Source: an uncultured Thermoleophilia bacterium (lineage in GTDB: Bacteria > Actinomycetota > Thermoleophilia > Solirubrobacterales > 70-9). Taken from it: a DNA stretch of 64,000 nt. Both the position numbers and the translations under genes were made by a program. Shown here in pieces: positions 19,261 through 21,916 of this stretch. The notes under the pieces are model-generated. The model worked only from the letters and a program-made list of their open reading frames with translations. It was not told where the DNA came from and searched no databases. Each line of letters begins with the position of its first letter. Positions within the stretch are counted from its first letter, which is position 1. The DNA lies in contig CAVWOU010000001.1 of the NCBI GenBank assembly GCA_963756745.1, positions 151,531-215,530 on the forward strand, in the 5' to 3' direction.

Positions 19261-19734
19261 GTGGAGCGAAGGAACACAACCCGCAGAGGCAATTACGAGT
19301 CGGGCTCGGATTACGTCCTCGAGTACGGCGAGCTTCGATTCTCGTTCAACGAACGCGACTTCGCCGAGCGGGTGGAGCAGGCCGCCGTGAAGCTCGACTT
19401 CGTCGAGCCGGGCCTCGAGCCGGACGAGCTGCTCGACCTCGTCGAGCTCGCCGTCAGCGGGGAGATTCCAGAGTCGGCCTCGCCCCTGGGCGAGCACGTG
19501 AACGAGAACTGGGCGCGGCTGGTCGGCCCGTCGAACCACAGCCTCGTTCACTGGATCCGCAGGCTCGTGTTCCGTGGCGCATGGCTCGACCAGCGCGTCA
19601 AGGAGGGCGAGCTCGACGTCGTCTTCGACGAGGAGACCCACGCCTTCGGCTACGTGCAGCTCGAGCGCGACGCCGAGCCGATCGAGCTCTCTCGCGAGCC
19701 CTCGTGGGCGGGCGTCGCCTACCACCCCTCGTAA
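19261..19734 (+). CDS. Hypothetical acidic protein
   Basis: 157-aa ORF with coding-like composition and no recognisable motif. Followed by a strong hairpin. Confidence 0.45.
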   Translation: MERRNTTRRGNYESGSDYVLEYGELRFSFNERDFAERVEQAAVKLDFVEPGLEPDELLDLVELAVSGEIPESASPLGEHVNENWARLVGPSNHSLVHWIRRLVFRGAWLDQRVKEGELDVVFDEETHAFGYVQLERDAEPIELSREPSWAGVAYHPS

Positions 19735-19744
19735 CTAGGCCAAC

Positions 19745-19770
19745 CGCCCGATGTGCTTGCACATCGGGCG
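19745..19770. terminator. Bidirectional hairpin between convergent genes
   Basis: cgcccgatgtgc-tt-gcacatcgggcg, perfect 12-bp arms flanked by AACTAG/CTAGTT, between stops at 19734 (+) and 19772 (-). Confidence 0.7.
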
Positions 19771-19771
19771 T

Positions 19772-21085
19772 CTAGTTGAGCAGCTCGGCGTTGGTCCGCG
19801 TCGCCTCGAGGCGCTCGCGAATCGCCGCGACCGCGTCCGCCGGCTCCATGCCGGCGAGCTCGGCGCGCAGCCTGCGAACGGCTTCGAGCTCGTCGGGCTC
19901 GCGCAGGTCCTCCTCGCCCGATGCGCGTAGCTCAGCCGGGCGAATCGCCGGGTAGACCCCGGCCGCCGCGAGCTCCGGGTCGAGCCGGATCAGCGCGTTC
20001 TCCGTCGTCTCGACCGCCGCCAGCGCTGCGCCCTCGTCCGCGACCCCCTCGAGCGCTGTCGCGATCACAGTCAGCGAGCCCGCGTCCTCCTCGGCAAGCT
20101 CGCGCCCGGCGCCGAACAGCTGCTTGACGTCCCCGGCGTCGCGCTGCGCGACGGCGAGCCGGGACAGCGAGTCGACGATCAGCACCACGTCCTCGCCGGC
20201 CTCGGCGCGGCGCTTCGATCGCTCGAGCGCGAGGGTGGCGACCCGCACCTGCTCGCGGGAGCTCATCTCCGCTGTCGCGACGGCGAGCTCGTCGTCGGGC
20301 AGCAGCTCGGCCCACGCCGTCGCTTCCTCCGGTCGCTCGTCGACCAGGAGGACGACCAGCGCCGGCCGCTCCTCGGTGCGCTGGATCGCCCCGGCGAGGC
20401 CGCGGAGCAGCGTCGTTCGTCCCGAGCGCGGCGCCGCCCGCACGAGCACGCGCTGTCCGAGAGCCAGCGGCACGAGCAGATCGACCGCGCGGGTGAGAAT
20501 GTCGGCCGAATCGGGGTCGAGCGGGAGGCGACGGCGCGGGGGCACCGCCGTGAGGTCCTCGAGCCGGGGCCGCTCGGCTCCCTCCTCCGGCTCGGCGCCG
20601 TTGACGAGGTCGACGTGCACCAGGGCCGGGTAGCGCTCGCCGCGCTCGGGGGGCCGCGCGGGGCCGCTCACCAGGTCGCCGATCCGCAGCTCGCAACGGC
20701 GGATCTGCGACGCCGAGATGTACACGTCCCCGGGCGTCGCCTCGAGGCCCCGCAGGCGGAGGAAGCCGTATCCCCGGAAGGTGCGATCGAGCACCCCCGA
20801 CACCTGCTCGGTCTCGGGCTCGCGCCGGCGTTCTTCCTGCTCGGACTCGACGTCATCGGCCGGCTCCGCTTCGTCCGCTGGCTCTTCATCGGCCGGGGGA
20901 GCCTCCTCGGCAGGGGGCTCCTCCTCGGGGGCCTCCTCTTCCGTCTCGGGCAGCTCGCCGGCGCGCGCGGCGATCTCATCGATCAGCTCGTCGCGGCGCA
21001 GCATCCGATACCCGGGCACCCCGAGCCGAGCCGCCTCGGCGTGCAGCTCAGACAGGTGCTTGTCCGCGAGGTCGCCGGTGGCCAT
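19772..21085 (-). CDS. rho: Transcription termination factor Rho homolog, divergent in the ATPase core
   Basis: Rho_N (LSELHAEAARLGVPGYRMLRRDELI). CSD-like YGFLRL...VYISASQIRRCELRIGDLVSG. VLLVDERPEE, LIVDSLSRLA, GSLTVIATAL. The P-loop reads AAPRSGRTT. Confidence 0.85.
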   Translation of the reverse strand: MATGDLADKHLSELHAEAARLGVPGYRMLRRDELIDEIAARAGELPETEEEAPEEEPPAEEAPPADEEPADEAEPADDVESEQEERRREPETEQVSGVLDRTFRGYGFLRLRGLEATPGDVYISASQIRRCELRIGDLVSGPARPPERGERYPALVHVDLVNGAEPEEGAERPRLEDLTAVPPRRRLPLDPDSADILTRAVDLLVPLALGQRVLVRAAPRSGRTTLLRGLAGAIQRTEERPALVVLLVDERPEEATAWAELLPDDELAVATAEMSSREQVRVATLALERSKRRAEAGEDVVLIVDSLSRLAVAQRDAGDVKQLFGAGRELAEEDAGSLTVIATALEGVADEGAALAAVETTENALIRLDPELAAAGVYPAIRPAELRASGEEDLREPDELEAVRRLRAELAGMEPADAVAAIRERLEATRTNAELLN

Positions 21086-21118
21086 CGCGAGGCGCGCAGC
21101 ATATCCGCGCCCTCGCGG

Positions 21119-21217
21119 TCATCGAACCAACCGGAAGAACGAACGAACCTCGTCGACGAACAGTCCCGGTTGCTCGAAGGCGGCGAAGTGGCCGGCGAGC
21201 ACGGCTGTCCGGGTTAC
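21119..21217 (-). pseudogene. C-terminal remnant (about 32 codons) of an alpha/beta-hydrolase
   Basis: Directly after, and in frame with, the tal stop: VTRTAVLAGHFAAFEQPGLFVDEVRSFFRLVR*. This is the typical catalytic-His tail (GH...E.P..f...v..F) with no body upstream. Confidence 0.5.
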
Positions 21218-21916
21218 CTAGGAGCCGGTCGCCTGCAGCCGCTTCTCAGTCAGCTCGCGCAGCCATTGCCCGAACTCGGGGCGCGACTCCCAGTCCTTGC
21301 GGAACCGCTCGGCGCCCGCGTCGGTGAGCGGGTGGTTGAGCATCTGGCGCAGCACCTTGGCCGGCAGGGTCGCGATCTCGCATCCGAGCTTGGCGGCAAT
21401 CACCGTGTGCTCGGGATGGCGGATCGACGCGGCGATCACCTGCGAGGTCACGCCGCCCGCACGGAATGCCTCGACGATCTCGCCGACGACGGCGGTCGAG
21501 TCGACCGAGATGTCGTCGAGCCGGCCCATGAAGCAAGACACGTAGGTCGCGCCAGCGCCGGCGGCGAGCAGCGCCTGGTTGGCAGAGAAGACGAGGGTCA
21601 TGTTCACTGGGATCCCGTCGCTCGTCAGCACGTGCGCCGCCTCGAGGCCCTCCTTGCAGAACGGAACCTTGACGACGACGTGCTCGTGGAGCTCGCGGAG
21701 CGCGCGGCCCTCGTCGATCATCCCCTGCGGATCCTGGGAGACGACCTCGGCCGAGACGGGCCCACCGACCAGGTCGCAGATCCGGCGCACGATGTCGCCC
21801 GGGTCGCCATCCTCCTTGGCGAGCAGCGACGGGTTCGTGGTCGCGCCGGCGAGCACGCCCCAGGCCGCGATCTCCTCGACCTCGGCGACGCTCCCGGTGT
21901 CGATGAACAGCCTCAC
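21218..21916 (-). CDS. tal: Short-type transaldolase / fructose-6-phosphate aldolase family
   Basis: VRLFIDTGSVAEVEE, GATTNPSL, VVKVP, YVSCFMGRLDD. Start set to GTG 21916. Confidence 0.9.
   Translation of the reverse strand: MRLFIDTGSVAEVEEIAAWGVLAGATTNPSLLAKEDGDPGDIVRRICDLVGGPVSAEVVSQDPQGMIDEGRALRELHEHVVVKVPFCKEGLEAAHVLTSDGIPVNMTLVFSANQALLAAGAGATYVSCFMGRLDDISVDSTAVVGEIVEAFRAGGVTSQVIAASIRHPEHTVIAAKLGCEIATLPAKVLRQMLNHPLTDAGAERFRKDWESRPEFGQWLRELTEKRLQATGS

Follow-up and report, generated by a model that had tools for sequence, protein, structure and literature searches.

Does a Rho-like gene that has lost the motifs of the Rho motor still encode a transcription terminator, or has it acquired another role? 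The window analysed here, 64,000 nucleotides from an uncultured Thermoleophilia bacterium of the order Solirubrobacterales (assembly GCA_963756745.1, contig CAVWOU010000001.1, positions 151,531 to 215,530), contains a gene that a first-pass annotation had read as a Rho homolog with an altered P-loop and a missing Q-loop. That annotation left two choices: a very atypical Rho with which the organism terminates transcription, or a translocation-dead paralog. The open reading frame, with the protein sequence quoted there, is present in the window (Table 1). Aligned to Rho family models and structures, the product is a full-length, three-domain Rho homolog that scores below the equivalog cut-offs. 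It matched the NCBIfam models TIGR00767 (256.1 bits, cut-off 509.45) and NF006886 (266.5 bits, cut-off 315) from end to end, and Pfam matches were found to Rho_N (residues 5-39), Rho_RNA_bind (95-167) and ATP-synt_ab (199-317, 60 bits). The protein does not qualify as the short-form paralog Rho2 (NF041509), scoring 220 bits against a cut-off of 628; moreover, it has a Rho_N domain and is the sole copy in its genome.

Table 1. Coordinates in the window of the Rho-like gene, the parts of its product and the neighbouring features
Feature	Positions	Strand	Basis or remark
Rho-like gene	19772..21085	-	ORF, 437 aa + stop codon
Rho_N helix bundle, residues 1-44	20954..21085	-	PF07498, 30.7 bits
Acidic disordered insert, residues 45-92	20810..20953	-	net charge -20; pLDDT <50
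Cold-shock-like OB fold with primary RNA-binding site, residues 93-170	20576..20809	-	PF07497, 84 bits
RecA/F1-type ATPase-like domain, residues 199-380	19946..20491	-	PF00006 and fold match to Rho C-terminal domain
Walker A variant AAPRSGRTT, residues 217-225 (K181R, K184R)	20411..20437	-	alignment
Q-loop deletion site AVAQRDAGDVK, residues 311-321	20123..20155	-	18 columns gone relative to E. coli 278-295
R-loop remnant ALEGVADEG, residues 344-352	20030..20056	-	acidic, zero basic residues
Arg-finger region ELRASGEE, residues 385-392	19910..19933	-	column tally
Perfect 12-bp GC-rich hairpin without U tract	19745..19770	.	between the convergent stops of the Rho-like gene and orf157
orf157, 157 aa, convergent with the Rho-like gene	19261..19734	+	ORF
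Transaldolase/FSA gene (tal), upstream of the Rho-like gene	21218..21901	-	PF00923, 176 bits

An AlphaFold2 model of the protein, built on a 71-sequence alignment, reached a pLDDT of 82 and a pTM of 0.75. Its top Foldseek matches were Rho structures only, and it superimposed on E. coli and M. tuberculosis Rho with TM-scores of 0.71-0.86 and an rmsd of 2.6-3.0 Å over approximately 360 columns. The Rho_N domain is modelled as helices at residues 3-7, 11-21 and 31-42. The model thus predicts that the Rho fold is intact and that disorder is confined to the insert. The best sequence match in the PDB was M. tuberculosis Rho (E = 1.3e-58). For individual residues we use E. coli Rho numbering, with a reference sequence identical to PDB 1pv4 at 419 of 419 positions, and column tallies refer to 121 close homologs of the window's protein.

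The Walker A motif had been reported as AAPRSGRTT, against PPKAGKT in E. coli. In HMMER alignments APRSGRTT falls opposite PPKAGKTT of the solved Rho structures, so that Arg occupies both lysine columns, K181 in addition to K184, and no P-loop lysine appears on proper alignment. All 121 close homologs have Arg at the K184 column, where SGRTT stands in place of the GK[TS] consensus, while the K181 column holds Arg in 111 and His in 10. The remainder of the pocket is strongly retained: T185, D210, E211, D265, S266 and R269 are found in every close homolog, R212 in 117, and an aromatic residue at the adenine-stacking F355 position in 118. In the numbering of the protein itself, D305 and E250 are kept in 121/121 and R251 in 117/121; they are lost in other families of the order. 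Judged from these columns, the ATP pocket is conserved in the window's family apart from the Lys-to-Arg swaps.

We considered whether GC-driven depletion of lysine could account for the change, given that Lys makes up 1.85% and Arg 9.8% of residues in the likely coding frames of this genome (Arg being 5.3 times commoner). This explanation was rejected, because strict P-loops (GxxGxG[KR][ST]) elsewhere in the genome have Lys in 65 cases and Arg in 8, and the F1 alpha subunit keeps GDRQTGKT. The Arg P-loop is therefore specific to the Rho-like protein. The protein itself contains 3 Lys and 50 Arg, and one of the lysines, K321 (E. coli K298), is invariant in 121/121 homologs.

In RecA, the K72R substitution lowers hydrolysis by orders of magnitude while leaving ATP binding and ATP-induced conformations intact. 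Laboratory mutants of this type carry the same replacement of the invariant P-loop lysine within the same ATPase superfamily. The Rho-like protein differs from them in that its substitution is natural, fixed throughout the close homologs and joined with loss of the translocating loops. Within the RecA/F1 ATPase superfamily it is unusual for a Lys-to-Arg P-loop to be fixed in nature while the catalytic Glu is conserved.

The second reported anomaly, a shortened segment between LIVDSLSRLA and GSLTVIATAL, was borne out by structure alignments. The spacing is 24 residues compared with 39 in E. coli Rho, owing to an 18-residue deletion of the Q-loop combined with a 2-residue insertion further on. 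The Q-loop of the secondary RNA-binding site, residues 278-290 with K283 and T286, is absent from the Rho-like protein on proper alignment and from all 121 close homologs. Since both K184R and the Q-loop deletion are present in every one of these homologs, neither can be due to chance or to an assembly error. The R-loop has also changed: the K326 column holds Ala, Gly, Glu or Asp, the T323 column holds Asp or Glu, and the loop, EGVADEG in the window's protein, is acidic. Loss of the basic R-loop residue alone is not disabling, because M. tuberculosis Rho, which has Thr at the K326 position, is functional without an R-loop Lys (PMC8828861). Read from the alignments, every known RNA contact of the central channel is lost in the Rho-like protein, with the Q-loop deleted and the R-loop acidic. 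At the Arg finger, taken as R366 (the R of SGTRKEE), 114 of the 121 proteins have Ser, and an Arg two residues upstream is conserved in 116. The primary RNA-binding site, by comparison, is complete. Rho_N is followed by a CSD/OB fold in which F64, R66, Y80, E108 and R109 are each kept in 120-121 of 121 close homologs and Y110 is Tyr or His.

A strongly acidic insert after Rho_N had also been noted, and we could confirm it: residues 45-92 carry a net charge of -20, and residues 44-88 are predicted to be disordered. Across the family the insert varies in length from 11 to 75 residues, with a mean charge of -11 and 38% Asp+Glu. Acidity extends to the whole protein, which with a net charge of -42 ranks among the most acidic ~1% of the proteome, and to the ATPase-like domain (net charge -11, compared with 0 for the corresponding region of E. 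coli Rho). In PMC11347177 the motifs named as typical of actinobacterial Rho insertions are APA, QN, RxR and EDDV, and the words 'acidic' and 'negatively charged' are not used for Rho insertions. We speculate that the acidic disordered insert, lying by the RNA cleft, may serve as an autoinhibitory mimic that competes with RNA.

The genome that carries the window (2.7 Mb in 15 contigs, 98.7% complete) was searched for a canonical rho and none was found; it holds one Rho-like gene only. Two weak Rho matches on contig 10 proved to be F1-type ATPases, one of them with the alpha-subunit P-loop mentioned above. Directly upstream of the Rho-like gene lies tal, an arrangement found across the order and also upstream of canonical rho in the sister family f11. 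In a maximum-likelihood tree a single branch with 100/100 support parts canonical from degenerate sequences. E. coli Rho groups with canonical Thermoleophilia Rho on short branches, and the Solirubrobacterales Rho-like proteins sit on branches of 0.4-2.0 changes per site. Because the Rho-like gene is the only one of its kind in the genome and shares the tal-rho slot with canonical rho of f11, we conclude against a paralog: it is the positional ortholog of rho, vertically inherited and altered in situ.

Other features around the gene were also inspected. The hairpin downstream has a minimum free energy of -24.4 kcal/mol (z-score -4.4). In this lineage, which has no canonical Rho, it is a candidate for a bidirectional terminator of the kind that lacks a U tract. 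The convergent orf157 gave no matches in searches of Pfam and NCBIfam. It adjoins the Rho-like gene across the order, at 55-88% identity, and is more conserved than the Rho-like protein. Most families of the class, irrespective of Rho state, have homologs with 40-50% identity; these are not adjacent to rho there, and in genomes with canonical Rho they lie far from it. We therefore rejected orf157 as a functional partner of the Rho-like protein and regard the adjacency as plain synteny. In the tal-rho spacer (21086..21217), translation of the tal frame past its stop yields VTRTAVLAGHFAAFEQPGLFVDEVRSFFRLVR, a peptide similar to the C-terminal His end of an alpha/beta-hydrolase. The corresponding spacers of 17 related loci contained no counterpart of it. 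A rearrangement inferred from this 'tail' is unsupported, since relatives have no counterparts in their spacers and the tal-rho adjacency is ancient.

The survey was extended to the order and the class. None of the 201 Solirubrobacterales genomes sampled encodes a Rho above the TIGR00767 cut-off. A degenerate Rho-like gene, counted as a match to a profile built from the window protein's own family, is present in 187 of these genomes and in 65 of 66 genera. The nature of the damage varies between families. In f2 the P-loop reads PPAAGAS or PPRSGTT, Val or Ala stands at E211 and part of the Q-loop remains. In f4 the P-loop reads SGAGAT or APTPEMAT, Gly-Ala or Gly-Thr replaces Asp-Glu and the C-terminus is truncated. 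The larger-genome family f3 keeps GK[TS], has no Q-loop and shows Gly-Val substituted for Asp-Glu. In one genus of f1 (G012) neither the P-loop nor DERPEE survives. Common to all families of the order are Rho_N, the primary RNA-binding cleft and the core of the RecA-like domain; not one inactivating lesion is common to all of them. This pattern fits a scenario in which constraint on the motor would have been lifted close to the base of the order, with the gene decaying independently in each family thereafter. Since other families lost E211 or the whole P-loop and nevertheless kept the gene, the shared function needs no ATP hydrolysis. In the wider class, canonical Rho (615-667 bits, PPKAGKT, intact Q-loop) was found in f8, f10 and f11, and rho was absent in f7, f9, f12 and f13. 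Together with its degenerate state in the window's order, this suggests that Rho-dependent termination is broadly dispensable in Thermoleophilia.

Several irregular copies were encountered. Single in-frame TAG or TGA codons lie inside the matched region of several f1 and f3 Rho-like genes (for example in G191, G194, G215, G255, G296, G207, G234, G153, G182 and G305). In G227 the gene is split into two adjacent frames, and in G257 three identically scoring copies lie on three contigs. Local loss of the gene to pseudogenes, truncation at the C-terminus or duplication in the assembly may account for these cases. One genome of the order, G202, encodes a canonical-like Rho (L104, G202:C9:840-1916; 451 bits) with ARAGKT, a full Q-loop, SGTRRED and a Gly/Arg-rich N-terminal region, and carries its own degenerate copy besides. 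The canonical-like copy may be due to contamination or to horizontal transfer.

Within the genus, dN/dS was 0.16 for the CSD, 0.21 for the ATPase-like domain, 0.32 for Rho_N and 0.59 for the insert, values that are rough because dS is near saturation. At 80-90% tal identity, canonical Rho proteins of f11 are 95-97% identical and the degenerate proteins 50-74%; the drop is seen in both the ATPase-like domain and the CSD. From this comparison at matched tal divergence, constraint is relaxed roughly tenfold yet clearly present, and the Rho-like protein evolves roughly ten times faster than canonical Rho. With its fold under purifying selection and essential residues lost, the protein is predicted from its sequence to be a Rho-derived pseudoenzyme.

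How these results bear on the possible roles of the gene can now be considered. A paralog that has taken on a new role beside a canonical Rho encoded elsewhere is highly improbable. The window's genome offers nothing in its favour, and the extra canonical-like copy of G202, the one observation that points this way, looks foreign in its Gly/Arg-rich insert and sits close to the end of a contig, in a MAG whose contamination is 2%. Against a paralog stand the single Rho-like gene in a nearly complete genome, the lack of any Rho above the TIGR00767 cut-off among the sampled genomes, and the tal synteny common to the Rho-like gene and canonical rho. Of the two choices left by the first-pass annotation, then, 'translocation-dead' is well supported at the sequence level by the Q-loop, R-loop, Walker A and finger changes, and 'paralog' does not hold. 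A functionless relic, decaying slowly once Rho-dependent termination had become dispensable in the class, is somewhat less remote but still improbable. Such a history could be expected where rho was lost outright in other families of the class, where constraint is clearly relaxed, and where a few genera of the order have fragments or weak matches only and some copies contain an in-frame stop. We nevertheless disfavour it, because the gene is kept as an intact, full-length open reading frame in nearly all genera and because dN/dS is much lower in the folded domains than in the insert; dozens of columns are invariant, the whole primary RNA-binding site among them.

A more serious alternative, although in our view an unlikely one, is that the protein is still the cell's working Rho terminator, with weak RNA-dependent ATPase activity, an Arg P-loop, a shifted Arg finger and other channel residues. 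We leave some weight on residual ATPase or terminator activity because the catalytic Glu and the Arg valve are strictly conserved in the window's family; more broadly, E211, R212, D265, T185 and the aromatic residue at the F355 position vary little or not at all, purifying selection acts on the ATPase-like domain, and M. tuberculosis Rho works with a poor motor and without the R-loop Lys. A working terminator of this kind is difficult to reconcile with the absence of all known Rho RNA-channel contacts, the acidity of the remnant loop and of the ATPase-like domain, and a Walker A Lys that has been replaced while the genome's other P-loops keep theirs. It also sits poorly with sister families that lost the catalytic Glu or the whole P-loop and kept the gene, and with the accelerated evolution of the protein. 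The Q-loop-less K184R form is certainly lineage-typical, as the first-pass annotation had allowed; nothing suggests that it has normal ATPase activity.

We therefore consider it likely that the gene product is an oligomer derived from Rho that binds RNA, is unable to translocate and probably retains nucleotide binding, with hydrolysis slow or absent. Such a protein would assemble through its RecA-like domain, and its N-terminal clefts would still capture C-rich single-stranded RNA. Nucleotide would probably be bound, with slow or nil hydrolysis by analogy with RecA K72R. Since it could neither thread RNA nor track along it, the protein would not be a classical Rho motor; its action on nascent or untranslated RNA would be that of an RNA-binding ring or switch. 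Its job in the order probably needs no motor, because the whole order keeps a similarly stripped-down Rho. Two observations run against the oligomer without a motor: strict conservation of the catalytic Glu and the Arg valve is what would be expected if hydrolysis still mattered, and the conserved Arg two residues away from the finger column might yet serve in that role. Motor-free silencing or termination, in which C-rich nascent RNA would be captured and ATP binding would act as a switch on RNA polymerase or on the RNA, is a tentative proposal that we hold to be doubtful.

Comparison with known systems places the protein close to Rho in architecture. Canonical Rho (E. coli, PDB 1pv4 and 3ice) has the same layout of Rho_N, CSD and RecA-type C-terminal domain and, where compared, occupies the same tal slot. 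The primary-site residues, the Walker B Asp, the catalytic Glu and the Arg valve are alike. Unlike canonical Rho, the Rho-like protein has Arg in place of both P-loop lysines, a deleted Q-loop, an acidic R-loop and a finger Arg that is apparently displaced by two residues. M. tuberculosis Rho (PDB 7oqh) resembles the Rho-like protein in that an insert separates its Rho_N from the CSD, its motor is weak and its R-loop lacks the Lys. It differs, however, in that it has lost neither the Walker A Lys nor any of the Q-loop, retains the Arg finger, has an insert that is not purely acidic and depends on ATP-dependent motor action (PMC4499133).

The nearest published account is that of Moreira et al. 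2024 (PMC11347177). There, Conexibacter woesei and Baekduia soli are listed among Actinomycetota that lack a functional Rho and have 'Rho-like sequences', recognised as Rho_N plus RNA-binding domain. K184R is mentioned in passing among bicyclomycin-pocket variants of a few actinomycetes, and functional Rho factors are said to have a highly conserved ATPase domain that is free of large insertions and deletions. The two listed species are members of Solirubrobacterales, and their Rho-like sequences are probably orthologs of the f3 forms; the window's family keeps far more of the ATP pocket than f3. The paper counts the two species as Rho-less and makes no reference to a retained RecA-like domain, to selection, to order-wide spread or to family-specific lesions. 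In our literature search no paper was found that describes the retained motor-less domain, its selection, its spread through the order or its positional orthology, and on catalytically dead Rho in this lineage it yielded nothing besides PMC11347177. What the window adds is the Arg P-loop in a pocket that is intact in other respects, orthology at the tal-rho locus, the comparison of rates and the control on other P-loops.

Current annotation needs correction in both directions, since the gene is called 'Rho' by JGI and 'hypothetical' by NCBI and, in the one published survey, falls within a lineage without Rho. Textbooks present Rho as the ring-shaped RNA motor; in this order, whose members are common soil actinobacteria, the sole rho ortholog has shed the RNA-moving parts and is still maintained by selection. 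If the Rho-like protein acts on transcripts, it would isolate what Rho can achieve by capturing RNA and binding nucleotide alone, and would bear on the debate over whether translocation is needed for termination. Motor-free termination, if true, would provide a natural, order-wide example on which the disputed allosteric model of Rho termination could be tested.
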